Shown here piece after piece: positions 1,175-17,793 of a stretch of 64,000 nucleotides of DNA. The stretch lies in IMG/VR virus record IMGVR_UViG_3300027419_000027, positions 1-64,000 of that record. One strand, given 5' to 3'. The translations under genes and the position numbers were made by a program. The stretch is from a virus (lineage: Duplodnaviria > Caudoviricetes). The stretch's first letter is position 1. Each line of letters opens with the position of its first letter. Under the pieces are notes generated by a model that was given only the letters and a program-made list of their open reading frames with translations, did not search any database and was not told where the DNA came from.

Positions 1175-1612
1175 CTATGTGACGGGTACTGGGGATTTCC
1201 CGGGGATTTCCCCAGTACCGATTTCCTGGAGAACGAATACCGAGTTTTTGGGCGAGATTTCCCAAAGGATGTCCGAGCAGAGCAGGGCGGCGTTAACGTC
1301 GTAGCACGCCCTGAGAATGGTGGATTCGGCGACAGAGCGGCCGAGCCAGACCGCCTGACGGACTTGATCAACGTCTGCGGGCCCGTGGGAGAGAAGGAAC
1401 CGAACCAACGCGTGTTCGGTTGCTGTGAGCCGGCACTGATGGAGCTCGCCACTTGGAGCTCGGCAGCGAACCATCTGGGGATTCGCCAGAGTCAGGCCGG
1501 TCGGCCGGTCGGTCGCCAAGCAGAGCAGGGCAGTGGTGAGGATTCGGATGGCGTCCGCTATTTCGTCGGGCGACCAGTCGACCTCGATTTCCCCCGGAAG
1601 GGTTATTCCCAC
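1175..1612 (-). CDS. winged-helix DNA-binding protein (OmpR/PhoB C-terminal-like)
   Basis: RLTATEHALVRFLLSHG...AVW...STILRACYDVNAAL pattern; start uncertain. Confidence 0.55.
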   Translation of the reverse strand: MGITLPGEIEVDWSPDEIADAIRILTTALLCLATDRPTGLTLANPQMVRCRAPSGELHQCRLTATEHALVRFLLSHGPADVDQVRQAVWLGRSVAESTILRACYDVNAALLCSDILWEISPKNSVFVLQEIGTGEIPGKSPVPVT

Positions 1613-1632
1613 GGCAGTAGCCTAAATTCGGC

Positions 1633-1661
1633 TTGACGGTGCCGCGGAGTCTGCCTAGCAT
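1633..1661 (+). promoter_or_regulatory. sigma70-type promoter
   Basis: TTGACG-17 nt-TAGCAT. Confidence 0.65.
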
Positions 1662-1666
1662 AGACA

Positions 1667-1779
1667 GAGAATCCTCTGGACCGCCTCGCGATGGTCAGGG
1701 ATGCTCGGGTGTCGGCTGCCAAACTTCCACCCGGGCGTGATGCGTCTTTTAGGACCGCTTCGCAGGCGGTCCTTTTTTA
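1667..1779 (+). ncRNA. candidate ~110-nt small RNA on the strand opposite to the flanking genes
   Basis: bounded by promoter 1633-1661 and terminator 1751-1779; internal hairpin GCTCGGGTG/CACCCGGGC; no credible ORF. Confidence 0.45.
1751..1779 (+). terminator. intrinsic terminator
   Basis: AGGACCGC-ttcgcag-GCGGTCCT followed by a T run. Confidence 0.75.
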
Positions 1780-2013
1780 TTTCACGCCTGCAGCACGCAG
1801 GGCGTTCTTCAGGATCTGCCTGGAATCGTAATCCATTTCGAATCGCTCCAGGCGGGCGAGAACTTCCTTGCAGGCTTTCAGAAGCTTCGGGCTCTCCTGG
1901 GATTCCAGTCGTTTCGCCCACCGATACAACGCCTCACCGTCGAGGTCACCGTGAATTCCTCGCTCCCAGCCTGTATCCATGACGTATGGTCGCTCTTGTG
2001 GCGTCTGGCTCAT
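1777..2013 (-). CDS. hypothetical phage protein
   Basis: purine-rich RBS gaggaaagg upstream; protein-like composition. Confidence 0.65.
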   Translation of the reverse strand: MSQTPQERPYVMDTGWERGIHGDLDGEALYRWAKRLESQESPKLLKACKEVLARLERFEMDYDSRQILKNALRAAGVK

Positions 2014-2148
2014 CCCGACTTCCTTTCCTCGTATTCCCTGATCCTCTGGCCTCGTTCGCCCTTTGTTTTTGGAAGAAGGCCGCCTACGGACAAGTTACCA
2101 GCCTGACGTAGGCGGCTTCCTCAACGGGAGCCCGTTGGCTTTCCGTCG

Positions 2149-2664
2149 TCAACTGTCAGTCTGGCGACAATGCTCATCGTTGTCTTCAAACCGCGATGGA
2201 TCGATGTGCGTATATGGAACCCGCTCGTCCTCCAGGGCTAATTCGACATCGGATAACCGCTGCGCAGCGAGGTCGAATGCAGCAGCTTCCATCAGAAGTT
2301 GGGCTCGCTTGAATGCCAACTCCGGTGGCTTGGCGATCAAAGCAGCCGCGACTCGGCTACATTCCGCCTGAGAGGTCAGGATAGCCGCCACTCGCGTGAG
2401 TTCGTCGTAGGACGCTTTCTGGTTATGCACTTTATCCTCCAAAGTAATTAGTTTGGATGTTCGAACCGGTTGATAGTCCAGGACTTGTGTATTTTTTTGA
2501 CAGACCTTAAACGTCCGATAATGTTTCGATCGTCTTTCGCGATCGCATTGGTGATTGAAACGCTGGGAGGACGGTTCACACCGGAGCCTCCCAGGTACGA
2601 AAGCCGCCCCAAGCAAGTACCACCTAGATTGGAGCGGCGTGATCGTTTCGGAGAATGGATTCAT
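2149..2664 (-). CDS. hypothetical protein
   Basis: 171-aa ORF with a helical-looking C-terminal half; start uncertain. Confidence 0.4.
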   Translation of the reverse strand: MNPFSETITPLQSRWYLLGAAFVPGRLRCEPSSQRFNHQCDRERRSKHYRTFKVCQKNTQVLDYQPVRTSKLITLEDKVHNQKASYDELTRVAAILTSQAECSRVAAALIAKPPELAFKRAQLLMEAAAFDLAAQRLSDVELALEDERVPYTHIDPSRFEDNDEHCRQTDS

Positions 2665-2944
2665 GAGATCAAATCCAAGGTGGTACTTTAGGATGTGCCG
2701 AATTTAGCAGTTCCCAAAAACTGCGTCAAGTGGAATATCCTAGTCTCCGTAGGGAATTCCCCTAATGACGGAAAATCACAATTTCGGCTGTGATTTTTCG
2801 GCAGAGCCATTTTGTTGAGGTCAACAATATGGTATGAGCAGACCGCCACCTTTTTGGCCTCACCGTTAGAGAGTGAGCCTTCAGGCCGACGCTTGAGCAG
2901 AAGCCCACAATACGTGGCATATTTACAAGAGGCTCTCCGACAAA

Positions 2945-3607
2945 ATGCGTGTCGGGATCGACTTGGATAACGCACGCCTGGAGATCCATCGACTTATACT
3001 TAACGTAGAGGAAAACTTCCGAGACTCGTTATCGCTTAATCACCCAGGAGAAGATTTTTGTGTCTCGATGAAGGAGGTCTGTTTCAAGGACGACGTAGAG
3101 GGCCTGAATGGCCAAAACTACCATACTTGTCCGTTTGTGCTGAGCGATATGCCTCTTTTTCGCTACGCAGGAGCAGAGCCTTTCAGGGAAGATGAGGTTA
3201 TTGACAACCTTGATTTCGACGAGAACACTAACAGGAATGAATTTGATCGACTCAGAGAGACCCTGTTCTACAAGAGTTTCGTATCAAGAACAGTGGAGTA
3301 TGTCAGCGAATTTTCGCACGACCAACAACAGTACACTAAACTATTTCGATCCGGACTTGTTGTTCCTGTTGTTCTACACGAAATACCATGGGTGTTCATT
3401 TGCGTTGGCGCCACAGAACCCGCTGTGTTTGGTGAAGATGACAAACAGATCGCGTGTACATTTGCAGATGCAATTGCAGAACTAATCCGGCTTGATATGG
3501 TCTTTAGTGCTGTGACTGATGCAAAGAAGGTGATCGTCATGGATGACGTAAGTGACCTTGAGCTATATAAATTGCTGGAAAATCGCGAGGAAGACCATGG
3601 CTGTTAG
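2945..3607 (+). CDS. GAF-like domain protein
   Basis: C-terminal SGLVVPVVLHEIPWVFICVGATEPAVFGEDDKQIACTFADAIA resembles the GAF terminal motif; AT-richer segment. Confidence 0.5.
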   Translation: MRVGIDLDNARLEIHRLILNVEENFRDSLSLNHPGEDFCVSMKEVCFKDDVEGLNGQNYHTCPFVLSDMPLFRYAGAEPFREDEVIDNLDFDENTNRNEFDRLRETLFYKSFVSRTVEYVSEFSHDQQQYTKLFRSGLVVPVVLHEIPWVFICVGATEPAVFGEDDKQIACTFADAIAELIRLDMVFSAVTDAKKVIVMDDVSDLELYKLLENREEDHGC

Positions 3608-3818
3608 GATCAGGTTTGGCAGAAACCTTGCCGGCAATAGCACGTTGATCGGGAACCCAAATGGAAAGATCAGAGTGATCATTGTCGAGAGAGACAAACG
3701 GTTTACTCCAAACGATTTTGAGTGCGCGCTGCATCGCTTTGGCCCGGTCAGTGCGACAAAGAATAGCGACGTTCAGGCAGCCATACAGCGGCTGCTGCTG
3801 TCGCCTGCCATCCACTGA
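3597..3818 (+). CDS. hypothetical protein
   Basis: GAGGAAG RBS before ATG 3597; overlaps the end of the upstream gene. Confidence 0.45.
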   Translation: MAVRIRFGRNLAGNSTLIGNPNGKIRVIIVERDKRFTPNDFECALHRFGPVSATKNSDVQAAIQRLLLSPAIH

Positions 3819-3821
3819 TCG

Positions 3822-4047
3822 TTATCGGTGGGCCGCATTCTTTGCCGTCACAACTACCTCAAACAGCTCCTCAAAACTCCAGATGTGGCCTTCTAGTTTG
3901 GCCATCATTGCGGCTGTCGAATACTGGAGCCCTCGACCAAGAGCCGTAGAACGAGTTTGGCCTGCCGCAGTCTAGACAACGAAATCGTTGGTTGCCCTTC
4001 CGGTCCCGACCGTGCTTCTTCCTGTTGGCATGAGCACATGCAATCAT
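3822..4047 (-). pseudogene. internally deleted IS1-family transposase remnant
   Basis: N-terminal Zn ribbon MIACAHANRKKHGRDRKGNQRFRCLDCG, HTH fragment AKLVLRLLVEGSSIR and C-terminal AAMMAKLEGHIWSFEELF, lying in different frames. Confidence 0.7.
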
Positions 4048-4429
4048 CGCGAACCCCTTCACTTCTCTGGCGGGGTTCGCTAGAATGAACTTGCAAGGGT
4101 TACATTCTGGGCTAACCACGCCTAGGTTGTGATTCCCCCGGGGCCGCTTCAACGGCCCCGGGGACTTCAACAAAAACGGAAGGCAGGGGTTACGATCCCG
4201 TCCGGCTCACACCGGCCCCCACCAGCCGCTTATAAGGCGGTTGCGGCGTCCAATCCGCGGGGCTACCTTCCGCTCGGAAAAATGGTCGCCTTGCCCTAGC
4301 GGGTTCCCTGGTTGCCACTTGGTTCCCCGCTAGGACTCGGCCGTCTTGCCATCCTCGCCCCATCCTACGGCGACCACATCCGCAGACAAAAAAAGCCGGC
4401 GTGGACCGGCTCGGGAGGGCAGGGGAGGG

Positions 4430-4603
4430 TCAGGTATTTTCAGCAGCCTTTTGTATCGCTGCTTCGGCCGCTTCGACTGTTCGGCTCGGAGGATTGCAGT
4501 CGTATACATTTTCAAATGTACTTGGCAATTCAATCGGCCTTTCGTCGAACCATTCAGTTGGAATGGGCGATGCCAACTTGGCAGCGGCGAATTCTTCTGT
4601 CAT
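4430..4603 (-). CDS. hypothetical protein (MTEEFAAAK...)
   Basis: ATG immediately after the stop of the upstream HTH gene. Confidence 0.45.
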   Translation of the reverse strand: MTEEFAAAKLASPIPTEWFDERPIELPSTFENVYDCNPPSRTVEAAEAAIQKAAENT

Positions 4604-4604
4604 C

Positions 4605-4835
4605 TCACCATCCTCGCTCCGGTTTGGGGGTTTCGATTCGCGGTGGCCGTCCAACCGGCCTGGGAATCTCGGAAAACTCGGCCAGTTCTTCCTCGCTGAT
4701 GAGCCAGTCGCGGCCCATCTTTTTTCCGATGCGACCGGCTACACACAGTTGCCGGACCCGCATCTTGGAGAGTCCCAGTCTGGCGGCGGCTTCGGCGGTC
4801 GTTAGGTATTTGGGATCCATTCTGATTGTGTCCAT
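4605..4835 (-). CDS. excisionase/MerR-like HTH_17 DNA-binding protein
   Basis: YLTTAEAAARLGLSKMRVRQLCVAGRIGKKMGRDWLISEEEL. Confidence 0.8.
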   Translation of the reverse strand: MDTIRMDPKYLTTAEAAARLGLSKMRVRQLCVAGRIGKKMGRDWLISEEELAEFSEIPRPVGRPPRIETPKPERGW

Positions 4836-5005
4836 GGTGTCGTGGGGGTGGTGCTCCTCGCAGGCAGGCCACACGTCAGTTGTCCCATCTAGCCCCGGGG
4901 TAGACTTTCACCCACCTAGTGTGGCCGCACTTTCCGCATACGATTTTTTCGCCCACTCGCGATCGGTGGGCTGTGTGATCTGTTATGGAGCCCTGCGCGG
5001 GCTCC

Positions 5006-5040
5006 CAGCGATCCCGAATTTCCCCTCGGGATCACGGGGG
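5006..5040 (-). repeat. intergenic hairpin module A, copy 1 of 3
   Basis: identical 35-mer cagcgatcccgaatttcccctcgggatcacggggg at 5006, 6131 and 8029; stem GATCCCGA/TCGGGATC. Confidence 0.95.
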
Positions 5041-5045
5041 AGTCA

Positions 5046-5246
5046 TCAATCGCCGATGTGGCACACGTACATTTCATCGGCTACGGATTTTCCCACGAAT
5101 CTCGCCAGTTTCCGTCGCGCTCCTCGCTCGGTGGTGGCAGTCACGGCGTATCCGGCCCCGCGATTGCTGGAAGCTTCTCTCGCTGCCAGAGAAGCCGTGG
5201 AATTCGCCATAAATCGGTAGGTGCGCTTTTTGGGTTTGGTCATCAT
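5046..5246 (-). CDS. small cassette ORF (MMTKPKKRTYRF...)
   Basis: starts from RBS module C (AGGAG) and ends just before module A. Confidence 0.7.
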   Translation of the reverse strand: MMTKPKKRTYRFMANSTASLAAREASSNRGAGYAVTATTERGARRKLARFVGKSVADEMYVCHIGD

Positions 5247-5274
5247 CTGTCGGTTCTCCTGGTTGGCCCTCAGC
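5243..5274 (-). repeat. RBS/start module C, copy 1 of 2
   Basis: identical 32-mer (minus strand gctgagggccaaccAGGAGaaccgacagATGA) at 5243 and 8771. Confidence 0.95.
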
Positions 5275-5303
5275 ACGCCGGCGAACTGCCGGGCGCTGGT
5301 GGG

Positions 5304-5360
5304 GTGGTAAACGCAAGTCCCCGGCCAGGACGCAACCCCTGACGCGGCTGCGGGGAAGGG
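5304..5360 (-). repeat. intergenic structured module B, copy 1 of 2
   Basis: identical 57-mer gtggtaaacgcaagtccccggccaggacgcaacccctgacgcggctgcggggaaggg at 5304 and 8441. Confidence 0.95.
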
Positions 5361-5378
5361 AATCAGGCGTGAAGGCAT

Positions 5379-5693
5379 TCAATTTCGTCGAGCCTCGGCC
5401 TTGGAGACTGCCTCTTCGAGCATTCGCACAGTTGCGTCCAGCCGGGTAATCTGCGCCGGTCCCGTGTACGTGCCAGTCTGGTGATTGTGGCTCAGTTTCC
5501 ATATCACCTGTTTCGCGGCCTCCAGTAGTTCCGGCGCTGCGGCGATCAGACGGGCGTTGGCTTCGTGCGATCCGTCCGCCTTGCGGCCATACGATGCGAT
5601 GAGGCAACATTCGTTCGGGTTTTCAGTTTGCGGCGGGTGATTGATCAAGAAATACTCCCGGTCGAGTATCCATGGTCCTGGTGTGTGGTTCAT
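5379..5693 (-). CDS. HTPGPW...ANARLIAAAPELL family phage protein, paralog 1
   Basis: widespread small phage protein motifs; AGGAG RBS. Confidence 0.85.
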   Translation of the reverse strand: MNHTPGPWILDREYFLINHPPQTENPNECCLIASYGRKADGSHEANARLIAAAPELLEAAKQVIWKLSHNHQTGTYTGPAQITRLDATVRMLEEAVSKAEARRN

Positions 5694-5906
5694 CGCTCAG
5701 ATTCTCCTGTTGGGTGGGTTGTTTCTCAGTCCCCCGTTGGCGCATCGAGCGCCGTAGCGATGGGCGGGGGAGTTCCTCGGGGGTCATTGGCAAAGGGCGT
5801 CGAATCGCGCCGACCACTCCTCTTCCGTGGAGGCTTCCTCGATTTTGGGCATGGTGGCCGGGAACTGCTGGATCGGGTGAATCCTTGGGATCACAGCCGG
5901 AACAAA

Positions 5907-6101
5907 TCATTCCCACGGTTCGCCGTCCTCGACTGTCCCGTCGGGGAACACGTCGAATAGCTCGCCGTCATCTTCCAGCCGCACGGCCTCGCCTCGGTCA
6001 GCAGCGATACGTTTTGCCGCGTGGATTGCCTCGTCACACACAGCAGAGCCTTGCAGCCCCACGGTAATCTCTTCGCCGTTCATCGTGTAGATTTCCGCCA
6101 T
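5907..6101 (-). CDS. small acidic cassette ORF (MAEIYTMNGEE...)
   Basis: RBS leader cacAGGAGatgagacaATG, shared with the 8064..8414 gene. Confidence 0.7.
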   Translation of the reverse strand: MAEIYTMNGEEITVGLQGSAVCDEAIHAAKRIAADRGEAVRLEDDGELFDVFPDGTVEDGEPWE

Positions 6102-6130
6102 TGTCTCATCTCCTGTGGTAGATGTTGTTT

Positions 6131-6165
6131 CAGCGATCCCGAATTTCCCCTCGGGATCACGGGGG
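6131..6165 (-). repeat. intergenic hairpin module A, copy 2 of 3
   Basis: identical to 5006..5040; 4 nt after the stop of the DUF3560 gene. Confidence 0.95.
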
Positions 6166-6169
6166 AGGG

Positions 6170-7132
6170 TTAACTCGATTTCTTGGTGGCTTTCGTGATG
6201 TGCCGCTTGCCGGCCCCTTGGTCCTGGCAAGCGATGCCCATCTTCAGAGAGTCGAGCCTTGACTGTCCTTCTGGGGTCGGATCGGTGGCTCGGCAGTCGC
6301 GGCAAATGAGCGGGATTTCCGGAAGTTTCTCGGCTGCCCATGTCGCGTACATACGGCCATTTCCGTTGAGGTGGCGAACCCAAGCCGATCGAGATGGAGC
6401 CCATCTCCAGCCGTTGCTCTTGAGGTAGTCGCGCACGGAAGAGGCCGGTTTTCCGTTGAATTCGATCAGGATGCGGCCCCATTCCTTGTCCTCGGAAATG
6501 GTGAATCCGTCACCCTCGATTGCCTCGCGCTCCGGCTCGGCCTGTCGCCTCTCAAGAATCGTGATTCGGTCGCGAACCCGCTTGATGTTCGCGTTATTGT
6601 TCGATAACTCGTAGGTGGGGTGCCGATAGTACGGCCTGCAATGGTAGGGGCAGATCCTGCCGAGGGAGACCAATTCCTTGATGCTGTGCTCGGAAAGGCC
6701 GGCGGATCGCATCTGGCCGTCAATGTCGGCTGAGCCGACTGCGATTTTCGCCTTTCGCAGTTTGGCGTTATCGGCCTTCATCTCGGTTTGCCGGGCTTCC
6801 AGTTCCGCCAGCTTTTCCCGTAGCTTGTCGACTGCGTCCGGATCGTCGGAACTGATCGAGGTATTGCTCTCCGCGGCTTCTGCGGCCTGTTCGTAGTGCT
6901 TGGCCTTCTGGCTTGAAGCAATGGCCTGCCTCATGTGGTTGTCGATGCGCTCCAAGTCTCTTCGGTGGCGTTTCTCGGAATGATGGCCCACAAGGATGGG
7001 TTGGCCGAAGGGAATGTAAGAGGCAATCTGGTCTGCGGCTCGATTCCTGGATTCGGATTCCTGCCGTGCGGATTCTGCACGTTCTCGGAGTCGCTCTATT
7101 CTGGCCTGTCGTCGCGTTTCGAAGTCGTTCAT
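6170..7132 (-). CDS. DUF3560 domain protein
   Basis: IPFGQPILVGHHSEKRHRRD...ISSDDPDAVDKLREKLAELE; GAGGTG RBS before ATG 7132. Confidence 0.85.
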   Translation of the reverse strand: MNDFETRRQARIERLRERAESARQESESRNRAADQIASYIPFGQPILVGHHSEKRHRRDLERIDNHMRQAIASSQKAKHYEQAAEAAESNTSISSDDPDAVDKLREKLAELEARQTEMKADNAKLRKAKIAVGSADIDGQMRSAGLSEHSIKELVSLGRICPYHCRPYYRHPTYELSNNNANIKRVRDRITILERRQAEPEREAIEGDGFTISEDKEWGRILIEFNGKPASSVRDYLKSNGWRWAPSRSAWVRHLNGNGRMYATWAAEKLPEIPLICRDCRATDPTPEGQSRLDSLKMGIACQDQGAGKRHITKATKKSS

Positions 7133-7233
7133 GTGTCTCACCTCGCGTGGATTGTGGCGTTGTTGCGGCCCAAGCGGCGCGCCCGTTCTCCGGTCTGGTT
7201 GGCCAGCCGGAGGGCGGGGGAGTCGGTCGGAAT

Positions 7234-7419
7234 TCAGGCGGAAACCGCCTCGAATCTCCAATCCGGGTTCATCGCGCGCAGTTCGGCCAAGCATCCTTCC
7301 AGTCGTTCGGCGGGGATTCTGGCAGCGTGCACACGCAGACGCGTCAGGTTGCCGTCTGGCCGCATGAGCATGGCTCGCTGCATGTCTGGCGCTTTGCAGC
7401 GGATGACGTAGGTTGTCAT
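7234..7419 (-). CDS. small cassette ORF (MTTYVIRCK...)
   Basis: ATGA overlap with the upstream stop. Confidence 0.65.
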   Translation of the reverse strand: MTTYVIRCKAPDMQRAMLMRPDGNLTRLRVHAARIPAERLEGCLAELRAMNPDWRFEAVSA

Positions 7420-7700
7420 GAGTCGGCCCCTGTTGCTTTGGCGATTGCGGCGCGGGCCTGACCTGCAACCTCGCACATATTCACGCGTCCCTGACCCTCG
7501 TTCAGCAGTGCGATGGCCCGGCATGCCTCCAGCAGTTCCGGCGCGGCAGCGATTAGCCTGGCGTTGGCCTCGTGCGCCCAGTCCCTTTTGCGGCCGTAAG
7601 ACGCAATAAGACAACACTCGTTTGGATTGTCAGTTTGCGGCGGGTGATTGATCGAGAAATGCTCGCGGTCAATTGTCCATGGTCCTGGTGTGTGGTTCAT
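7416..7700 (-). CDS. HTPGPW...ANARLIAAAPELL family phage protein, paralog 2
   Basis: 51 of the first 59 aa identical to 5379..5693. Confidence 0.85.
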   Translation of the reverse strand: MNHTPGPWTIDREHFSINHPPQTDNPNECCLIASYGRKRDWAHEANARLIAAAPELLEACRAIALLNEGQGRVNMCEVAGQARAAIAKATGADS

Positions 7701-7951
7701 GCTTCACCTTCCTCTCGCACGCAAATTCCCATGGCTCCAATTTCCTCGCCCTGATGGCTGCAAATAAAGCCCAACTCCCGGGCCTTGTCGAGCAATTCAT
7801 TGACAGCCACTTCGATTGCGTCCGGCAGATAGAACGTGCCATCGTCGTTGCGCGGTAGGTCCGGGCCTATTTGATCCCATTGCTCCGTCATGATTCGGAT
7901 TACCTGATCTGCAATGGGGAGCGGTGTTTCGGGGTTGGCTAGGGTTGGCAT
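7697..7951 (-). CDS. small cassette ORF (MPTLANPE...)
   Basis: coupled by ATGA overlap to the downstream gene. Confidence 0.65.
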   Translation of the reverse strand: MPTLANPETPLPIADQVIRIMTEQWDQIGPDLPRNDDGTFYLPDAIEVAVNELLDKARELGFICSHQGEEIGAMGICVREEGEA

Positions 7952-8028
7952 TTTGTGGGCTCCAGAGGGTTAGGTGTGCCGCGTGATTCCGGCGCGGCTG
8001 TCCGGGCTACGGCACTCCGCGTGCCGTC

Positions 8029-8063
8029 CAGCGATCCCGAATTTCCCCTCGGGATCACGGGGG
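8029..8063 (-). repeat. intergenic hairpin module A, copy 3 of 3
   Basis: identical 35-mer directly after the TGA of 8064..8414. Confidence 0.95.
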
Positions 8064-8414
8064 TCAGGAAACGGCCCACAGTTCGCACCGGCATGGCTCA
8101 GTGTGGGCGTCTGACATGTGATCATAGATGCTATCGAGAGTGGTCATTAATGTCGCACCGTCGGCGTACTCACCGGACCCGACGACGGACCCATCGGCGA
8201 GCCGCTCTAGCCTGCCGACCTCACGCACATAGCACGATTGATCGCCAGGCCGGGTCGGTCGGACATCGTATACGGTCACGAGACCGCCGCCTCCGGCAAT
8301 TAGCCCCTCAGCGAGGCCGTAGGCGAGTCGCTTAGCCTCATCCCCGTCTCTCTCTCCGTAAACGTCGGTGTGATCGCCATTGCTGCGGCGATACTCGATT
8401 TCGTAGTGTTCCAT
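8064..8414 (-). CDS. small cassette ORF (MEHYEIEYRR...)
   Basis: cacAGGAGatgagaccaATG leader. Confidence 0.7.
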   Translation of the reverse strand: MEHYEIEYRRSNGDHTDVYGERDGDEAKRLAYGLAEGLIAGGGGLVTVYDVRPTRPGDQSCYVREVGRLERLADGSVVGSGEYADGATLMTTLDSIYDHMSDAHTEPCRCELWAVS

Positions 8415-8440
8415 TGGTCTCATCTCCTGTGAGGTGGGGT

Positions 8441-8497
8441 GTGGTAAACGCAAGTCCCCGGCCAGGACGCAACCCCTGACGCGGCTGCGGGGAAGGG
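8441..8497 (-). repeat. intergenic structured module B, copy 2 of 2
   Basis: identical to 5304..5360. Confidence 0.95.
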
Positions 8498-8501
8498 GGA
8501 A

Positions 8502-8774
8502 TCAAGCCGGCAATCGGTAGTGCTGGCCATTGCTGGCGGTCATCTCGTCGCCCGGCTGCGGATCGTCCTCGATAATCCAGCAGGCGATTTCCTCGGCGAT
8601 CGATGCCGGAAAGTCCTGCAAGTCAAGCGGGGTCCATGCGTGTCCGACTCCGCTCGGGTCTTCTTGGACTGCGTGGCCGGTGATAATCTCGTTCGTGTAG
8701 GTGTGCAAGACAGGGCGGCGGGTTTCGGTGGTCTGGTAGCTACGGTCGATGGTTAGGGCGGTGGTTTCGCTCAT
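8502..8774 (-). CDS. small cassette ORF (MSETTALTIDRSY...)
   Basis: starts from RBS module C copy 2. Confidence 0.7.
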   Translation of the reverse strand: MSETTALTIDRSYQTTETRRPVLHTYTNEIITGHAVQEDPSGVGHAWTPLDLQDFPASIAEEIACWIIEDDPQPGDEMTASNGQHYRLPA

Positions 8775-8802
8775 CTGTCGGTTCTCCTGGTTGGCCCTCA
8801 GC
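8771..8802 (-). repeat. RBS/start module C, copy 2 of 2
   Basis: identical to 5243..5274. Confidence 0.95.
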
Positions 8803-8910
8803 CCCGCCCACTCCCCATAGAGCGGCGGCAACCAGCAGATAGGGGAGTGAGCGGAGCGTGTTTCGTTGTGCTCATTGGTTGCCGCCTTAGAGCTTGTGCG
8901 TTACACTACT

Positions 8911-8939
8911 AATATACGGATAGGCCCCAACCGAATCAA
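8911..8939 (-). promoter_or_regulatory. sigma70-type promoter, likely driving the cassette array
   Basis: minus strand TTGATT-17 nt-TATATT; ATAGG boxes at 8920, 8939 and 8956 are possible operators. Confidence 0.65.
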
Positions 8940-8966
8940 TAGGCAAAATTCCCGAATAGGGCCAAA

Positions 8967-9350
8967 ATGGCAAAAGAGGCATCCAAGCCGCCAATTAAGA
9001 AGGCCGGCTCAGAGAAGCACCTAGCCCACCTCACCTATTCCCAGATCGCCACATGGGCCAAGCTCGCCCCACGCTCAGTCATCCAGTACGCCTCTCGCGG
9101 CGATTTCGATACTGCGAGCATCGAGAGCGTGCTAAAATGGGTCAACGCCCGCAGGCAACGCCTCGGCCTGCCACTGATTGGCGAGCCGCCAGCACCCGCA
9201 GAAAATTCCTCGGAAAATTTCCGGCCAATTTCCGCGAGTCAAGCCCCCTCAATCACTGACGGGGGGCCGCTGTACAAAAATCCCCAGAAAACAGGCTCGA
9301 AACCGATTCGAGCGATTCCCATTTACCAAGTGTCCAGCAACCCTATGTGA
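8967..9350 (+). CDS. hypothetical protein, possibly HTH-like regulator
   Basis: LTYSQIATWAKLAPRSVIQYASRG helix-turn-helix-like segment; divergent from promoter 8911-8939. Confidence 0.5.
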   Translation: MAKEASKPPIKKAGSEKHLAHLTYSQIATWAKLAPRSVIQYASRGDFDTASIESVLKWVNARRQRLGLPLIGEPPAPAENSSENFRPISASQAPSITDGGPLYKNPQKTGSKPIRAIPIYQVSSNPM

Positions 9351-9395
9351 TACCCTCGCCTCCACTCGTACCCTACAACCCAATCACCGGAGATT

Positions 9396-9746
9396 TTGAG
9401 GATGCGTAGTCTACCACCACTCAGGCCGCAGCAGTTCCACCCGCCACATTCTCCGCATATGGCACCGATCCCGATAATCGGCCAGCAGCAAGCACAGCAG
9501 CAGGCACAAGCACAAGCCGCCATCCAAGCCGCCGTCCAGTCCCTCTCCCTCGGCATCTATTCCGATCTCGCGGTCGGCCACCTTGCTCTCCATACCACGC
9601 ACCCAGCCGATCCATCGCGACTCCGACAACTCGCCGCGGATTCCCTGATTGCAGCCCGGGCGTATTTCGAGGGATTGGGAGTCATCGAGATTCCAGCCGC
9701 CCAGCAACCAGAGCAACCGCAGGGGGATTCCAATGGCCAAGCGTAA
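9396..9746 (+). CDS. hypothetical Gln/Ala-rich protein
   Basis: track ORF; alternative start at 9459. Confidence 0.55.
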   Translation: MRMRSLPPLRPQQFHPPHSPHMAPIPIIGQQQAQQQAQAQAAIQAAVQSLSLGIYSDLAVGHLALHTTHPADPSRLRQLAADSLIAARAYFEGLGVIEIPAAQQPEQPQGDSNGQA

Positions 9747-10608
9747 GCCAGCGAAGAGCCCAGCGACCAAGAGCACCGGCTCACTCATCCCCGCCACCAA
9801 CGCCACACCGCTCAGGTTCGAGGGCGTTTCCAACGCAGACACAGAGGGACAGCAGGGAGAAGGACCAGGGGGCGGAGCCACACGCCCCGTTTCCAGCGAT
9901 AAGCACACAGACGCACAGAGCAATAGCCAGAGCAACAGTGTTACGGATGCAGAAAGCGTAATACCAAGCACAGAAGAAGATACGAAGGACGCAAACGCTG
10001 CCCAAATTAACAGAACAGATGGTGTTACAGATTCAGGGAACGTAACACTCACGCCCAATGCCGACGCGCCGCCGCTGGTGGTGCCCCCCGCGCACGCGAG
10101 ACCCGACGAATCGCGTAGTCAGGCCTGGGAGCGAATCCGCAAGGAAGGTCGAGCGGCTGGCCTAGGCAAGCTGGAGGCGTATGAGCGAGCAACCGTAGAG
10201 GTGGATCGACTGTTTCCATTGGGATCGACTCCGGTAGTCGAGCTCGCCTCCATTGATCCGGCTCCCGCCGAGGGCGAAGGACTGCCGGGGCTGAGTATCA
10301 TTCCGGTCGACTGGCCCGATCTTCCGGCCAACGCAGCCCTGCCGGCTGAGGTGTCGTGGGTGCAGTCCAATCGTCTTCGGGTCCGGGTTGGCGACCGGGT
10401 GGAGCTCGGGCGGGCTCTCTCTCCTGCCCCCAGTCATGCCACGCTCGCCTGGCTCGAGACATCTATCCTGTACGGCAGCAAGTGGGCCGACATCGTGGCC
10501 CGGGCGGCTTCGGCCCAGGTCGATGAGGCATCCCATGCCCGGCGTGAGAGGGCAGCGCTTGAGGTGGTGGGCGAGCTACTGGGCAGCATGGCCGAGGCTA
10601 CCACATAG
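9733..10608 (+). CDS. hypothetical protein; candidate terminase small subunit (position-based)
   Basis: GGGGG RBS, long ORF with a low-complexity N-terminus and helical C-terminus; function is inference only. Confidence 0.55.
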   Translation: MAKRKPAKSPATKSTGSLIPATNATPLRFEGVSNADTEGQQGEGPGGGATRPVSSDKHTDAQSNSQSNSVTDAESVIPSTEEDTKDANAAQINRTDGVTDSGNVTLTPNADAPPLVVPPAHARPDESRSQAWERIRKEGRAAGLGKLEAYERATVEVDRLFPLGSTPVVELASIDPAPAEGEGLPGLSIIPVDWPDLPANAALPAEVSWVQSNRLRVRVGDRVELGRALSPAPSHATLAWLETSILYGSKWADIVARAASAQVDEASHARRERAALEVVGELLGSMAEATT

Positions 10609-10923
10609 CGTATACGCTACGTGATGGGCTGTATTGGGCCTGCTGGGCATCATCGCGTAAGGAGTTACGTCGATTCTTCGTGGGCTACCCTATTTGAGCA
10701 CATGGTCTGGCAGCCGCAGTGCTGCATGGCGAGTAGGCAGCATCGCATCGCCGGGCACTCGATCACCCGGGCGCGCCACCGGAAACCCGCCCAGACCGGT
10801 GGGGGTGGTCGCCGGGACTCCGACGTATGTCCTCATGTACCACATCCCCCATTTCACTTGCGTTTCGGGGTCCATTCCATTATCGCGGCTGGTAGGTATA
10901 CTTTGGGGAAGGAGGATGTCGCC

Positions 10924-11915: not shown

Positions 11916-12517
11916 TTGGAGTCTCCTATTTTCATAGCTTTGAGGTATCGTCTGACGGAACTTACGGAAACGCCGAGGGCCTGGGCGATTTCGGCGTGTG
12001 TTAGACCTTGTTCGCGGAGTTGGGAAGCTCGGCGGGTATCGATTCCGGCTTTTGTGGCGCCTCGTGGTCGACCGGTGTAGATGCCGCGTTCTTTAGCGGC
12101 GGCGATACCTGCGGCCTGTCGTTCTCGGCGGGTTTCCTGTTCCATTTCACCGATCCCCAGGAGGACGGCGGCGATCATCTTTCCCACGGTTCCGTTGAAA
12201 TCGATCTGCTGGGAAACTGAGACGACTCGCAGTTTTCGGTCGCACCATTCGCAGAGGACGTTTAGTCCGTCTCGGAGTTTACGCGAGAGTCGATCGAGTT
12301 TGTAGACGACGACGGCGTGGATGAGTCCGTTGAAGATGTCGGCTTGCAACTTCTCGAATGCGGGTCGATTCAGAGTGTCGCCGGATTCTTTGTCGACGTA
12401 GTAGAGGACTTTGCTGTGGTCGAAGCCGTTTCCGTCCAGCCAGCGGTCGATCTCCATTCTTTGTCCTGCCTCATTCTGGCCGACTGTCGAGACCCTGACA
12501 TAGACTGCGGTGGACAT
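11912..12517 (-). CDS. small serine recombinase (resolvase/invertase) with C-terminal HTH
   Basis: YVRVST catalytic motif, DKESG, KLDRLSR, RERQAAGIAAAKERG..GRP, HTH at the C-terminus. Confidence 0.95.
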   Translation of the reverse strand: MSTAVYVRVSTVGQNEAGQRMEIDRWLDGNGFDHSKVLYYVDKESGDTLNRPAFEKLQADIFNGLIHAVVVYKLDRLSRKLRDGLNVLCEWCDRKLRVVSVSQQIDFNGTVGKMIAAVLLGIGEMEQETRRERQAAGIAAAKERGIYTGRPRGATKAGIDTRRASQLREQGLTHAEIAQALGVSVSSVRRYLKAMKIGDSK

Positions 12518-12689
12518 GGCTTTTCTCCCTGGCTGGAAAACGTCCCCAATTGGCTGCACTGTCATTCTAATAGGGTGCCAGAAATAGTCAAGTAGCGTCC
12601 AGCCAACTTGGACGGAAATTCACCCGGCACGGTGGCTGTGTTCCTGGGACTCCCGTGAATGAACGTCTGTGCCGGCCGGTGGAATTGGT

Positions 12690-12718
12690 TTGCGTTTGTG
12701 GGTCCATGTTGATATACT
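12690..12718 (+). promoter_or_regulatory. sigma70-type promoter
   Basis: TTGCGT-17 nt-TATACT. Confidence 0.6.
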
Positions 12719-12763
12719 GATACGTGGTGAACGGGTGCAGAGGCGACGAGAGGAAAGGGAGAA

Positions 12764-12994
12764 ATGAACGGCAAGGGTGACAGGAATCGTTCATTGAGCC
12801 AGTCGTACCGTGACGGTTGGGATCGGATATTTGGGGATCTCTCAGATCTTTTCCCTGATCGGTACTGTTTTACATGCCACAGATACATTCCCTGCGGGGA
12901 ACTGATTGTGTTGGATGAGGATGGTCCGCGTGGGCCGATTCGTTGTCCGCATTGCCTGTCTACTGTTGACCTCTATTGCAAAGTTGGAGCATGA
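12764..12994 (+). CDS. small phage protein (GKGD...WDRIF plus Cys pairs)
   Basis: GGGAG RBS; motif common in phages. Confidence 0.65.
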   Translation: MNGKGDRNRSLSQSYRDGWDRIFGDLSDLFPDRYCFTCHRYIPCGELIVLDEDGPRGPIRCPHCLSTVDLYCKVGA

Positions 12995-13443
12995 CCATGA
13001 AACCGAAGAGTGTTCTGCTGGCTGGCGTGTTGGTTCTGCTGGTTGCGTCACTTTCTCTGGCGGGAATCGGAACCGGCCGGAAGTCTTCCGAGAGCAAGCC
13101 GCTGGGAGCCTTGCGAGAGAATCCATACGACAGCAATTCGCTCTCGAACCCCTATGGCGCCGGAAGCCCCTACCGATCGGACGGCCTGATGAACCCGTAC
13201 AGCCGGTACGGGAGCCCTTACAGCAACCAGTCCTGGCGGAATCCCTATGCGACCGAGGCCCCGAGACTTTACGAGGGCGGCAAGTATCGCGGCCGGTTCA
13301 GCACGAACCCCTACAATCGCGACTCGATCTCCAATCCGTACGGCAGATATGGCAGTCCGTACTCGCGTGACAGTATCAGAAACCCTTATGGTGCGGGCAG
13401 CCCGTATTCCAAAAGCCCCATCTACATCTGGCCGGGGAAATGA
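12991..13443 (+). CDS. secreted protein with NPY/GSPY repeats
   Basis: signal-peptide-like N-terminus followed by repeated SNPYG.YGSPYS units. Confidence 0.8.
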   Translation: MTMKPKSVLLAGVLVLLVASLSLAGIGTGRKSSESKPLGALRENPYDSNSLSNPYGAGSPYRSDGLMNPYSRYGSPYSNQSWRNPYATEAPRLYEGGKYRGRFSTNPYNRDSISNPYGRYGSPYSRDSIRNPYGAGSPYSKSPIYIWPGK

Positions 13444-13739
13444 GACAAGTGGAAGTCAGTCCAGGCGACGAGTATGGCGATCTGACGGTTGTTCGCGAGG
13501 CTGAGAAGTCCTCGGGCAAGCGGCGATTCCTCTGCGTCTGTTCGTGCGGCAACGAGGTGACTGCCCGGCTCGATCATCTTCGCAGTGGTCATACTAATTC
13601 CTGTGGCCGATGTGGGCTGGAATTCCGCGGCGAGCGGAAGACGCTGAAGGAGTGGGCCGCGTCGGCGGGAATCAAGGAGTCGACGCTGAGAGCACGGCTG
13701 AAGGTTATGGGGGTTGGGGAGGCTTTGAGGAGGAAATGA
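13440..13739 (+). CDS. homing-endonuclease-related protein lacking the nuclease core
   Basis: C.CSCG...LRSGHTNSCG N-terminus and F.G...L.EWA...GI..STL..RL C-terminus, both matching 33155..33805. Confidence 0.65.
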   Translation: MRQVEVSPGDEYGDLTVVREAEKSSGKRRFLCVCSCGNEVTARLDHLRSGHTNSCGRCGLEFRGERKTLKEWAASAGIKESTLRARLKVMGVGEALRRK

Positions 13740-13772
13740 CACCAAGGGAAAAAAAGAAGGAAAGAGGCTGAC

Positions 13773-14051
13773 ATGAGACTCACTGCAAAAGAAGCCCACG
13801 CAATGGCTGATGCTCAAGAATACGCGGAACGAAAAGTACAGGCCATGGAAATGGGCGAACAATTCCACATTAGGGCCGTCGCCGACCTGAACACACAATT
13901 GGGGGATTATTACTCAATGCTCTGTGCTGTGCTTGACGCCGCCTATTTGGATAACAACGTCTGCGGATTGATCAAGATCGATTCTCATTCGCTTATGATG
14001 ACGAAAGGCGGACAGAGATTTCTGAGAGCATTGGAAGCAAAACAGACATGA
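13773..14051 (+). CDS. hypothetical protein
   Basis: GAGG RBS; member of a coupled ORF chain. Confidence 0.6.
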   Translation: MRLTAKEAHAMADAQEYAERKVQAMEMGEQFHIRAVADLNTQLGDYYSMLCAVLDAAYLDNNVCGLIKIDSHSLMMTKGGQRFLRALEAKQT

Positions 14052-14299
14052 CACGCCGAACGACGATGCTGTTCACAATATACCCACCAACGACAGAGAT
14101 ACGTGGCTGGATGGACTACGTTAAAAGATTTAAGCAGGATATTACGTTTATCCTGTGGTGTCGAGTGGTCAGAAAGACTCCGCGAGAGAGGATTTCTGAG
14201 TGCAACGTGGAATGCCGACAACTGAAGCCGAAGTGGCACGACAAGTCAGGCGTTACTGGTGTGATCGAAGCTACGGCTATCTGGAAAGAGCGAAGATGA
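14048..14299 (+). CDS. hypothetical protein
   Basis: ATGA overlap. Confidence 0.55.
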   Translation: MTRRTTMLFTIYPPTTEIRGWMDYVKRFKQDITFILWCRVVRKTPRERISECNVECRQLKPKWHDKSGVTGVIEATAIWKERR

Positions 14300-14679
14300 A
14301 CTCTGCACTACAGGAGGGTGTGATGATGTGCTACTGGTGCTATTGGGGTTGGCCAAAGCCAATTCGGGTCATTTACGACGACTGCGTGCAACGGGCTGGC
14401 GAATCGGCGATGGACTACGGCCCGGGGCATGTGGTATGGGCAGATGAAAACTGGGATGAGGCCCAGTCCTGTCTCATCTACTTCGACGAATGGGTGCGAG
14501 ACTGGAATCGCGATGGTGATGAGATTTGTTACACCGCTGAACAACTTGCCGTTGTTCGCGAGTCGCTTGAACGCTTGGTGTTGGTTCCCGACGAATTCAA
14601 GCATGAACCGGAAGGGTATGACGAGGAGCATCCGAACCATTATCCTCCTCCAGCATCGTGGGAGTGCGAGGTGAGATGA
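14296..14679 (+). CDS. hypothetical protein (MCYWCYWGWP...GPGHVVWADEN)
   Basis: ATGA overlap; protein-like composition. Confidence 0.65.
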   Translation: MNSALQEGVMMCYWCYWGWPKPIRVIYDDCVQRAGESAMDYGPGHVVWADENWDEAQSCLIYFDEWVRDWNRDGDEICYTAEQLAVVRESLERLVLVPDEFKHEPEGYDEEHPNHYPPPASWECEVR

Positions 14680-14936
14680 ACAAAGGTTCCATCACGGTAT
14701 CAGACAGCGGAATATCCGTACGCGAAATCGTTCAAAATGGCTGGGCTGAAACTTCATTTCCGCGGACGGCCAATGGGCTACTCGAAGCTGCAAGAATCCT
14801 GGCTGGATGGATGGACTTGCCGTGCGAAGACATTAGCGACGAGTGCAGGCGGATCCATGCGCGTGAACAACAGGACGCGTTGTGGCGCGATGAGATCAGG
14901 CGAGCTTTTGGGGAGGAGTTCGATGAGCAAGGCTAA
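14676..14936 (+). CDS. hypothetical protein
   Basis: GAGGTG RBS, ATGA overlap. Confidence 0.6.
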   Translation: MNKGSITVSDSGISVREIVQNGWAETSFPRTANGLLEAARILAGWMDLPCEDISDECRRIHAREQQDALWRDEIRRAFGEEFDEQG

Positions 14937-15081
14937 GTTAACGCAATTACTGCGAAGGGCCGTTGAACTGCTTGAGCAGGCGAAGAACGCCTGCGAGACC
15001 GAGGGAGACTTTTGCCCAGTAGACGCGTACTTGGCCCGCGAGATTGAAGAGTTCATTCCCGAAGCGGAATCGTACCTATGA
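14923..15081 (+). CDS. hypothetical protein (MSKAKLTQLL...)
   Basis: GGAGGAG RBS. Confidence 0.55.
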   Translation: MSKAKLTQLLRRAVELLEQAKNACETEGDFCPVDAYLAREIEEFIPEAESYL

Positions 15082-15336
15082 ATGGTGAATCCGATGGTTG
15101 AGATTTCGGACGAAGACGCTGACAGATTTATGAAACAGGCAGCGGAATCTATCGCCAAACGTCTAGCACAGGGCGTACCTGTGGATTTAGCACACGCGAT
15201 CGATGTGTGCGAGATTGCCTTGAATCTGGTGCATGTGTTGGACTTCGGCGAAGGTCCGATTCGGTCGCGATTGCTGGATGCGTGCCAAGCAGCGAAGAAT
15301 GAAATCGAGGATCAGTGGGAGGAGTTCGATGGTTGA
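15082..15336 (+). CDS. hypothetical protein
   Basis: abuts the upstream stop. Confidence 0.55.
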   Translation: MVNPMVEISDEDADRFMKQAAESIAKRLAQGVPVDLAHAIDVCEIALNLVHVLDFGEGPIRSRLLDACQAAKNEIEDQWEEFDG

Positions 15337-15739
15337 GATCAAGCCGGGTCCGGAACTTGACCGAGCGGTAGCTGAGGCGATTGGCTGCTACGGTTGGGTT
15401 CGACCGGAAGATGAAAATCGCGTGGTTGGATTTGGTGATCTGTTTTGTGGCACGATACCTGGCGGCATAGTGAGAGTATCAGCCAGCGATAGACGACTTC
15501 CCGACTGCATCATTCCGAACTACTCCCACGACCTGAACGCAGCGTTTGCTGCGGCAGAGAAGGTGGGGCTGTTTGACGCTCGCGATGCACACATCTTCAG
15601 ACGATCGGACGAGTGGTATTGTAGTTTTGCACGGCACATCCTCAATGACGGGACGCCGTACGGGATTACGCACACCTCAGCCACCACTCTCTCTCTAGCA
15701 ATCTGTAAGGCAATTTTGACGTTGAAGAAGATCGAGTGA
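15329..15739 (+). CDS. hypothetical phage protein (GPELDRAVAEAIG...YSHDLNAAF)
   Basis: GGAGGAG RBS; motif common in phage ORFs. Confidence 0.65.
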   Translation: MVEIKPGPELDRAVAEAIGCYGWVRPEDENRVVGFGDLFCGTIPGGIVRVSASDRRLPDCIIPNYSHDLNAAFAAAEKVGLFDARDAHIFRRSDEWYCSFARHILNDGTPYGITHTSATTLSLAICKAILTLKKIE

Positions 15740-15861
15740 TGGCTGAGAAATAGCAGCAACACCTAATCAATGTTCTCGGTGGAGCGATAAAACCTCCACG
15801 TTGGTAGATCGTAATTCCAACGTGTGAGGTTTCTTTTTTGCGCGTTCCACTGAGGCGTTAG

Positions 15862-17793
15862 ATGACACTGTACTACCATCAGAAAACCCCTGACGGTCGC
15901 TGGCTCGTACCACGAAATCCAATCGAGAACGTGAAGTGGCGGATCCGATGCCGGGAGCGTGCGCTGGTTGACAAACGGTTCCAAGACGCCCTCTGGCAGG
16001 CCTGCATGGATGATTTGTTATTCTTCATGGCGTTCACCTGTTGGGGATACGATCCGCGAGCCAGAGTCAAGATTACCCCGTTCATTCCACACCCACACCA
16101 GGAATCGGTGTTCCTGGCGATGGACGATGCCATTGATCGGGCCGAGCGTGAAGAACGGTCGATCGATGTGATTCTCGACAAAGCCCGTGCGCAGGGCGGA
16201 ACATTCGGCTATCTGTGGATCGATCTTCGACGGTGGCTGCGTGACAGCATGTTCTCTGCGGGATACGTGACCAGAAACGAGGCTCTGGTCGACAGCAAGA
16301 CGGACTCGAACACCGTTTTGTGGAAGATTGCATGGGCCATACAGATGCTGCCGACATGGATGCAGCCAGACTATGAAAGGAACCTGGCGCAGCATACGTT
16401 CGTTAATAATGAGAACGGTGCGTTGTTGCGTGGATATGCTGCCGGGCAAGACGTAGCTGCCGGCGGACGGTCGACGGTCTTCACATGTGACGAGTTTGGA
16501 GCGAAGGAATTCATTGCCGGCGGAAAAGATGAGTCGGTGATGGAGAGTCTACACGATGTCACGAACTGCATTCGGATGGTGAGTGCAAGGTACGCCGACT
16601 CAGGAGTTTTTAACGAAGCGTGCGAGAACCCTGACACACGCAAGAACGGCGTCTATCTGGTCCTTGACTGGAAAGATCATCCAGCCCACGGGAAGAACTC
16701 CTACATCGTAGTTGACGGGAAGCCTGTCTCCAAAAAACCAGAGGAACAAGAGGCAGTCGACAAGTACCATGCCGAAAACCCTGATCTTCGTGCGAGACTG
16801 GAGAGAAAGGGGTTCAAGTTCGAGGGAGTGGTTCGCAGTCCGTGGTACGACATGCGGTGCCTGCGTCCCACTGCCACGCCCAGGCTGATCGCGTCACAAC
16901 TTGATCGGAATCCGAAAGGCGCCGTGGGCAAGGTCTTTCTTGTCGATCTTCTGGATCGCATGAAACAGAAGCACTGCAAGCCGCCTGTCTGGCAGGGCCA
17001 GCCGGTATTCGACTCGGAAACGCTGAAGCTGACAGGGCTGATTCCGCGAGACGATGGCCCGCTGAAGCTCTGGTTCAAGCCGGGCATCGACGACTCACCA
17101 CCTCTCGGCCCGTTCACTGCCGGCTGTGACATCGCCTCCGGTGGCGTTTCGCAGTACGCGACGAATTCCACCATGTCGGCGCTGGACGATCGGACAGGAG
17201 AACAGGTGCTGGAATACGCGATCAAGGGGCTTGAGCCGCGCCCGTTCGCCCGTCGCGTGGTCGGACTGTGCATGTGGCTGAGAAATGCCCTGTTAGGGTG
17301 GGAGGATTCTGGCGTATCTGGAGGGTTTGCAAAGGAGATAATGGAAGTCATCTACTATGGCAACGTGTTCTTCCGCGACGTAACGCAACTTGGTTCCCAG
17401 AAGAAAAGCCGCAAGCCTGGCTGGCCGTGCCGGGATGCAGACAAGGCGGACATGTTCGAGCAACTGGCCCTGGCAATGGAGATGGGAAAGTACATTCCGC
17501 GGTCGGAAGACATGATCATCGAGTGCGGAGAATACGAGTGGGAAGGCGACAAGATTATCCACGCGCCCACAAAGAATAAGGGAGCAACGGACAAAAACCA
17601 CGCCGATCGGGCGGTCGCTTCTGGTGGAAGCTGGCTCGTCTACATGACGGACAATGCCGGGGATCGAGTCGATACTGGCGAAGAGGATGGGTCAATTCCC
17701 GAGTACGGGAGCTTCAAGTGGCGTGAGGATCAGGAACGTCGACAAGCCAAAATCGGCAGTCCCAGGTTTGGAATTCGGGACGTGATTTGGTGA
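15862..17793 (+). CDS. terL: terminase large subunit
   Basis: Walker A-like DKARAQGGT, Walker B VFTCDE, RNase H-like nuclease AGCDIASG and C-terminal D(H)ADR; upstream of the portal. Confidence 0.9.
   Translation: MTLYYHQKTPDGRWLVPRNPIENVKWRIRCRERALVDKRFQDALWQACMDDLLFFMAFTCWGYDPRARVKITPFIPHPHQESVFLAMDDAIDRAEREERSIDVILDKARAQGGTFGYLWIDLRRWLRDSMFSAGYVTRNEALVDSKTDSNTVLWKIAWAIQMLPTWMQPDYERNLAQHTFVNNENGALLRGYAAGQDVAAGGRSTVFTCDEFGAKEFIAGGKDESVMESLHDVTNCIRMVSARYADSGVFNEACENPDTRKNGVYLVLDWKDHPAHGKNSYIVVDGKPVSKKPEEQEAVDKYHAENPDLRARLERKGFKFEGVVRSPWYDMRCLRPTATPRLIASQLDRNPKGAVGKVFLVDLLDRMKQKHCKPPVWQGQPVFDSETLKLTGLIPRDDGPLKLWFKPGIDDSPPLGPFTAGCDIASGGVSQYATNSTMSALDDRTGEQVLEYAIKGLEPRPFARRVVGLCMWLRNALLGWEDSGVSGGFAKEIMEVIYYGNVFFRDVTQLGSQKKSRKPGWPCRDADKADMFEQLALAMEMGKYIPRSEDMIIECGEYEWEGDKIIHAPTKNKGATDKNHADRAVASGGSWLVYMTDNAGDRVDTGEEDGSIPEYGSFKWREDQERRQAKIGSPRFGIRDVIW

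Follow-up and report, generated by a model that had tools for sequence, protein, structure and literature searches.

How can unrelated small genes be swapped in and out of a phage operon that has only one promoter, and still be translated? This question is raised by an array of ten small genes (g1–g10) and the repeated intergenic modules between them in IMGVR_UViG_3300027419_000027, an IMG/VR record of 80,038 bp that CheckV rates as complete. We analysed positions 1–64,000 of this record (the window) and compared them with five metagenome contigs, L020, L021, L022, L103 and L107; the array lies on the minus strand, and positions are given in + strand coordinates throughout. Judging from these contig comparisons, by which the pattern of exchange is shown, the locus is a variable, or 'hyperplastic', early-gene operon of an uncultured phage and a hot spot of gene swapping. 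We consider it probable that the hairpins and the ribosome-binding-site (RBS) adaptors of this operon have two uses, as expression signals and as short homologies at which gene cassettes are exchanged.

Four module types recur in the array (Table 1), A three times and B, C and D twice each, as had been counted in the initial annotation, a reading made from the DNA letters alone. The repeats are real and confined to the array: A, B, C and D have no further copies elsewhere in the 80,038-bp genome, and most of about 60 other phage loci (8–22 kb each) contain no dispersed repeats of 24–150 nt at all. The initial description of the modules as perfectly identical over 32–57 bp holds for B (57 nt), for C (32/32, the second copy spanning 5243–5274) and for two copies of A, 5006–5042 and copy 2, which agree over 37 nt; copy 1 of A matches them at 35 of 37 positions, both mismatches falling under the stop codon of g2. 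It does not hold for D, whose copies share 14 exact nt, followed by a 1-nt indel and five matching nt, AATGG. The proposed order of elements stands as listed, apart from two identifications. What had been called 'C-like' is a separate module, E, and was rejected as a copy of C, the 10-nt likeness sitting in the variable hairpin loop of E; and the 'hairpin, gene' after g7 is in fact a gene remnant, g8, followed by a further hairpin module, IG7.

The modules occupy fixed places with respect to the genes. All eight copies of A and of its variant A' in the window and its relatives start 0–20 nt past a stop codon, the seven invariant ones no more than 10 nt past it. Four post-stop modules have C-runs in common, and CTCCCCCG, the run that had been noted after stop codons, occurs six times genome-wide, counting both strands together, with four of the six lying in the array just past stops. 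Both C and D place AGGAG 9 nt ahead of an ATG and thus supply RBS and start, as originally proposed; the pattern GGAG-N-GAGA-N-ATG has only two occurrences in 80 kb, plus one variant ahead of g6. In a consensus scan of positions 4000–10000, the sole sigma-70-type match on the minus strand was the operon promoter, and no promoter-like site was found inside A, B, C, D, E or IG7, which agrees with the initial view that the modules contain none. Reading and translating the minus strand places ten genes downstream of this single, host-type promoter, which drives them all.

A search of metagenomic phage contigs with the modules, a check that the initial annotation had suggested, yielded five contigs in which the same modules flank different open reading frames (ORFs). 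The exact 24-nt core of A was found in L020, L021 and L022, a gapped B pattern led to L103, and a pattern from the leader that precedes the first module led to L107. The modules in these contigs are often 97–100% identical to those of the window, stand beside unrelated genes and come in other orders; the claim that recombination shuffles cassettes at reused modules is thus borne out by relatives that differ in both gene content and gene order. Seven copies of hairpin A, from four contigs that otherwise share little or nothing, agree at all of 35 nt, the loop included. Neither the exact A core nor exact C had a match in the IMG/VR search, and GTDB has no copy of the A core among its 185,579 species-representative bacterial and archaeal genomes. 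No module was present in the relatives of the DUF3560 gene of the array (L004–L019, at most 47% amino acid identity) or in 80 terminase relatives (53–79% amino acid identity, with 10-kb flanks), and a covariance model of A and the adjoining hairpin H2 (A+H2), run over about 1 Mb of sequence from these loci, returned known copies only. The gapped B pattern also matched Micromonospora twice, but both matches lie in GC-rich sequence, look like chance and were rejected.

The contigs differ widely in how much else they share with the window. L107 is a close syntenic relative: its flanks are 91–96% identical at the nucleotide level to 12557–16709, and its promoter, leader and adjoining divergent gene align to the window at 80% nucleotide identity. 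This homology ends exactly at 8800, the junction between leader and C. Beyond it, the L107 array has four other genes ahead of A'+H2, and it shares with the window only the g8–IG7 stretch (89%) and A+H2 (85%). L020 contains IG7 (68/68), a g3 homologue (97%), E (97%), B (98%), A+H2 (100%), the hairpin that precedes C (pre-C) and half of C, in an order different from that of the window and with different genes around them; relative to the common flanks, its whole array has the opposite orientation. L021 and L022 have nothing but modules in common with the complete phage genome, even by tblastx, and L021 has an A-to-C junction that is absent in the window. L103, with a terminase 31% identical to that of the window, combines the leader (82%), E, the 5' half of C and a variant of B with nine other genes, and its array has no module A. 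The 54-nt core of A+H2 is identical in L020 and differs at one position in L021 and at one in L022; in E, the stems are kept across relatives and the loop varies.

On this comparative evidence, several hybrid and truncated modules, and the remnant g8, are marks of past crossovers. A hybrid RBS in L020 joins the 5' half of C to the 3' half of D, and one H2 copy in L021 is cut within its loop and followed by a decayed RBS. In L020, a gene lies between B and pre-C, flanked by short repeats of the TACCAC type; in the window, B and pre-C abut via one such repeat. The cassette of gene h6 retains 50 nt of its own upstream sequence in L020 and in L107, yet the hairpin ahead of it is E in the former and IG7 in the latter. 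g8 corresponds to the last 33 codons of a 109-aa gene whose intact version is the first array gene in L107 and L020, and its nucleotide homology to these relatives begins at 5876. Since the intact homologue comes first in both arrays, about 2.9 kb, from C through g7, has taken the place of its 5' part in the window. Taken together, the joints lie just past hairpins, in the RBS or sometimes within genes. The last kind includes the first 20 nt of g4 (7681–7700), which are identical in g9 (5674–5693) and in h4 of L020 (9117–9136) and encode MNHTPGP; beyond them, h4 diverges completely from g4 and g9. This conserved 5' gene end may be one more exchange point.

What the modules might do in RNA can be gauged from their folds. 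A, H2, B, E and IG7 all fold with C-runs in the 5' arm and G-runs in the 3' arm, A with a stem of 11–13 bp and B, in both of its sequence types, with a bulged 12-bp helix. Spacers that contain A form better folds than their shuffled versions (z from −2.2 to −3.0), and the covariance model of A+H2 aligns 8009–8063, which holds A copy 1 and the hairpin H2', from end to end with 66.6 bits. Seven positions separate A' of L107 from A, four in the stem, two in the loop and one in the 5' flank; the stem changes make up two fully compensated pairs (A-U to G-C and U-A to C-G), and none is uncompensated. The inner stem of IG7 likewise has two compensated pairs in L107. These compensatory changes suggest selection on RNA structure in hairpins A and IG7. 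Palindrome A is imperfect at two positions, which form G-U pairs on the transcribed strand but would be A-C mismatches in the opposite one; this speaks for an RNA element rather than a symmetric DNA site. The stem of B varies by a single U-G to C-G change and no other; B as an intrinsic terminator was rejected, its U-rich tail being confined to the type found in the window and L020. None of the modules matched an Rfam family.

These observations can be joined into a mechanism. Each gene is framed by two parts, a C-run/G-run hairpin (A+H2, B, E or IG7) 0–20 nt past its stop codon and an RBS adaptor (C, D or their relatives) that leads up to its ATG. In the polycistronic RNA, the hairpins would most likely adjust the output of each cistron by protecting 3' ends, by serving as processing sites or by attenuation, and the adaptors would provide incoming genes with a working translation start. 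The same parts could serve as short homologies; exchange at modules is possible because they consist of 30–70 nt of near-identical sequence. During co-infection, a phage Rad52-type protein with an exonuclease, or the recombination machinery of the host, would then exchange, delete or insert cassettes. Genes of this kind are present: on the minus strand at 73930–76692 of the genome lie NinG, a 5'-3' exonuclease and a Rad52/22-family annealing protein (L108 11931–14693), and for gene sets of the Red type, homologies of a few tens of bases can be enough for recombination. The initial proposal that the modules double as RNA and translation signals is supported only indirectly, by the compensatory changes in A and IG7 and by the position of the RBS. 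For the dedicated 'system' that it also proposed we see no sign; general homologous recombination at short linkers would suffice.

Several points weigh against this interpretation. Only six contigs are known, and it is from their sequences that we infer an RNA function, recombination at the modules and the enzyme responsible. For spacers containing B, folding is no better than in shuffled controls (z = +1.06 and −0.78). Each hairpin has a single divergent copy from which to judge covariation, which makes the evidence for RNA structure suggestive but statistically not strong; shuffle controls for the compensated pairs of A' and IG7 were not decisive (28/500 and 126/500), and a palindromic protein-binding site in DNA would co-vary symmetrically too. 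Finally, the breakpoints inside genes, in g8 and in the first 20 nt of g4 and h4, indicate that illegitimate recombination also contributes.

The last point leads to the possibility, which we regard as unlikely though by no means negligible, that the modules are regulatory signals only, kept by purifying selection, and that the mosaic arose by random illegitimate recombination with selection retaining joints at gene borders. The structural selection on the hairpin stems would fit such a history, as would the breakpoints of g8 and h4, which lie within genes and not in modules. There is also precedent for conserved intergenic motifs in otherwise diverged non-structural regions of several actinobacteriophage clusters, with no recombination role claimed (PMC3203893, PMC7302621). 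Purifying selection on signals does not readily explain, however, why identity extends over loops and unpaired spacers (53/53 for pre-C plus C with L021, 68/68 for IG7 with L020), when the coding sequence adjoining identical modules is 79–97% identical or unrelated; and the hybrid and truncated modules place crossovers within the modules themselves. The start-associated sequences (SAS) and extended start-associated sequences (ESAS) of mycobacteriophages in Cluster K and Microbacterium phages in Cluster EF (PMC3203893, PMC7302621) resemble C, D and the GGAG-N-GAGA-N-ATG pattern in being over-conserved at the RBS position before the ATG of non-structural genes, in one orientation and across different gene families. 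In contrast to the array with its longer adaptors (C, 32 nt; D, about 19 nt; two copies each), SAS is a single 13-bp motif with 10–20 copies per genome and without a claimed role in shuffling, and the inverted repeats of ESAS are reported not to support RNA pairing, whereas the hairpins of the array do.

In another scheme, suggested by the invariance of hairpin A and to which we give a small chance, this hairpin is more than a passive stabiliser and patch of homology and is the recognition site of a dedicated trans-acting factor, be it a phage RNA endonuclease, an RNA-binding protein or a recombinase whose substrate is the folded single strand. If this were so, the array would be a platform of promoter-less cassettes common to a community of unrelated phages.

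That the array is an integron-like, site-specific system, with palindrome A (28 bp, in direct orientation) as the site of a recombinase such as a small serine recombinase nearby, seems very unlikely to us. The layout invites the comparison, since an integron likewise strings promoter-less cassettes behind one promoter and has a hairpin-forming repeat at the 3' end of each; moreover, serine recombinases are encoded close to the array in the window (12083–12508) and in L020, and the L020 array is inverted relative to its flanks. Unlike an integron, however, the array lacks an IntI-type tyrosine recombinase (PF00589 had no match in the whole 80-kb genome), and A, B, E and IG7, as read from their sequences, contain no RYYYAAC/GTTRRRY pair as in the attC core. 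The serine recombinase of the window is a single small enzyme encoded 3 kb from the array and unrelated to the one beside the L020 array, although A is identical in both, and for this reason it was rejected as the driver. At least four unrelated module types are in use, the breakpoints vary between RBS, H2 loop and gene interior with no single fixed crossover point, the L103 array manages without any A, and the G-U positions of A speak for RNA.

Small mobile elements of the repetitive extragenic palindromic (REP) or miniature inverted-repeat transposable element (MITE) type, inserting into intergenic spacers, are an even less plausible source of the repeats. As in REP, A is a palindrome past stop codons, and it is identical in otherwise unrelated contigs; yet there is no copy of it in the 185,579 genomes or elsewhere in the phage, terminal repeats, target duplications and a transposase are all lacking, and its orientation and distance from the stop codon are always the same. 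REP and bacterial interspersed mosaic element (BIME) stabilisers, and the early RNase III sites of phage T7, are intercistronic hairpins that shape polycistronic mRNA. In this they offer a functional parallel: like the array modules, they are stable hairpins right after stop codons within an operon, with no U-tract. A sequence relation to the modules was not found for either. In structure, the 11–13-bp stem of A is short for a classic RNase III site, and B has 12 bp with a bulge; and REP/BIME differ from A in having many copies in the host chromosome along with a RAYT transposase, where the exact A core has none in the 185,579 genomes. An assembly artefact, finally, can be set aside with near certainty: metagenome assemblies can be made chimeric by repeats, but the same modules, in frame with the flanking ORFs, occur in six independent assemblies, and of the two outcomes that the initial annotation had named as refuting, an artefact and identical gene content and order in relatives, neither is what we see.

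With short-homology exchange at expression signals as the preferred reading, the nearest known system is that of the promoter-early stem-loops (PeSLs) of T4-type phages (Arbiol et al. 2010, PMC2839356; Comeau et al. 2014, PMC4122927). In both cases, the orphan genes of hyperplastic regions have short repeated motifs with G/C-tract stem-loops in the intergenic spaces beside them, and it is at these motifs that insertions, deletions and replacements between related phages begin and end, here in all five contig comparisons; homologous recombination between motifs is the mechanism proposed for PeSLs, as it is for the array, and between neighbouring PeSLs it is described as giving rise to mini-circles or deletions. 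The two differ in their parts. Every PeSL unit carries a sigma-70 early promoter next to a stem-loop that is a tested terminator (PMC2839356, PMC4122927), whereas the array modules have no promoter and depend on the single one of the operon. Unlike PeSLs, the array also mixes several unrelated module types and reuses separate RBS adaptors.

Table 1. Modules and genes of the array in the order of transcription, with the operon promoter and leader (+ strand coordinates).
Feature	Position	Strand	Remarks
Operon promoter, TTGATT-17 nt-TATATT	8911–8939	−	same promoter in L107; TTGACT/TATACT version in L103
Leader with 16-bp hairpin (about 8857–8801), ending where module C begins	8803–8910	−	fold z = −2.07
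Module C copy 1 (RBS AGGAG + ATGA), joined to g1	8771–8802	−	also in L021; only 5' half in L020 and L103
g1, 90-aa orphan	8502–8774	−	
Module B copy 1, bulged 12-bp hairpin, starts 4 nt past g1 stop	8438–8497	−	variants in L020, L022 and L103
Module D copy 1, RBS to g2 ATG	8412–8430	−	
g2, 116-aa orphan	8064–8414	−	
Module A copy 1, 11-bp hairpin overlapping g2 stop	8029–8065	−	
H2' hairpin, shape of H2 with different stem sequence	8009–8027	−	fold and covariance model
g3, 84 aa	7697–7951	−	97% nucleotide identity to L020 gene
g4, phrog_1273 member, paralogue of g9	7416–7700	−	
g5, 61-aa orphan	7234–7419	−	
Module E, hairpin after g5 stop	7165–7233	−	97% to L020 9327–9395, about 81% to L103
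g6, DUF3560 protein, 320 aa	6170–7132	−	E = 4.5e-41
Module A copy 2, starts 2 nt past g6 stop	6131–6167	−	
Module D copy 2, RBS to g7 ATG	6099–6116	−	
g7, 64-aa orphan	5907–6101	−	
g8, C-terminal remnant of 109-aa gene intact in L020 and L107	5784–5876	−	79% amino acid identity to last 34 residues of L020 h1
Module IG7, nested hairpin after g8 stop	5716–5783	−	68/68 to L020; inner stem with 2 compensated pairs in L107
g9, phrog_1273 member	5379–5693	−	
Module B copy 2	5301–5360	−	
Pre-C hairpin + module C copy 2, joined to g10	5243–5300	−	53/53 to L021 743–691
g10, 66-aa orphan	5046–5246	−	
Module A copy 3 + H2 hairpin, end of variable array	4987–5042	−	

The cargo of the array is almost entirely without known relatives. 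Family matches were obtained only for g6 (DUF3560) and for g4 and g9 (phrog_1273, function unknown), and an all-against-all BLASTP of the cargo proteins of the window and its relatives linked only g4 with g9 and g8 with h1. Genes that share a module are not paralogues, g1, g10 and k2 being unrelated to one another and g2 to g7. The match between g3 and its L020 homologue is one of nucleotide sequence, and no homologue of g3 outside its own cluster was found in a set of 5.8 billion proteins. Among INPHARED phages, matches were limited to short stretches of the g4/g9 family. The role in early host takeover or anti-defence that the initial annotation proposed finds no support in these results, nearly all of the cargo proteins being orphans.

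Some further observations concern the surroundings of the array. The leader is conserved at 80–82% in L103 and L107; 8876–8886 could pair with a perfect 11-nt complement 40 nt downstream on the minus strand (8824–8834), and in L103 (1750–1835) this pairing shows a compensated change from C-G in the window to U-A. The first gene beyond the variable array (4605–4874, minus strand) encodes a DNA-binding protein of the HTH_17 (excisionase/MerR) type and is followed by a canonical terminator at 4412–4393. A D12-class adenine methyltransferase is encoded at 63251–64060. An exact direct repeat of 96 nt with a period of 135 nt stands at the end of the record (79808–79903 and 79943–80038) and could be a terminal or an assembly feature. 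The stretches 557–608 and 78347–78402 of the genome are 96–98% identical to L020 amid regions of 73–89% identity and may be further conserved intergenic modules outside the array. In L020, the array (8684–10761) is inverted relative to a block (1263–4575) that is homologous to 76869–2708 of the genome; between the two lie 4 kb of unrelated small genes of lower GC content, which encode several '..PEPW..' proteins resembling g4 and g9. An independent analogue of the array is found in an unrelated phage, L009 (IMGVR_UViG_3300045988_068914): at 3024–5620, just upstream of its DUF3560 gene, five copies of its own intergenic module of 80–106 nt, each ending in AGGAG, lie between small genes, and L008 is organised likewise.

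Phage genomes are mosaics, and whether their joints arise by random illegitimate events or by homologous exchange at short conserved linkers is still debated. The locus described here is a clean natural case for the linker view: its linkers of 30–70 nt are up to 100% identical, stand between unrelated orphan genes in phages whose terminases are only 31% identical, and include hybrids that mark crossovers. Such linkers need no promoters; with a post-stop hairpin and an RBS adaptor, a gene would already be portable within an operon. The modules are candidates for studying how intercistronic hairpins tune the early expression of phages, and the array offers a defined place in which to look for new early genes, possibly with a role in host takeover or counter-defence.

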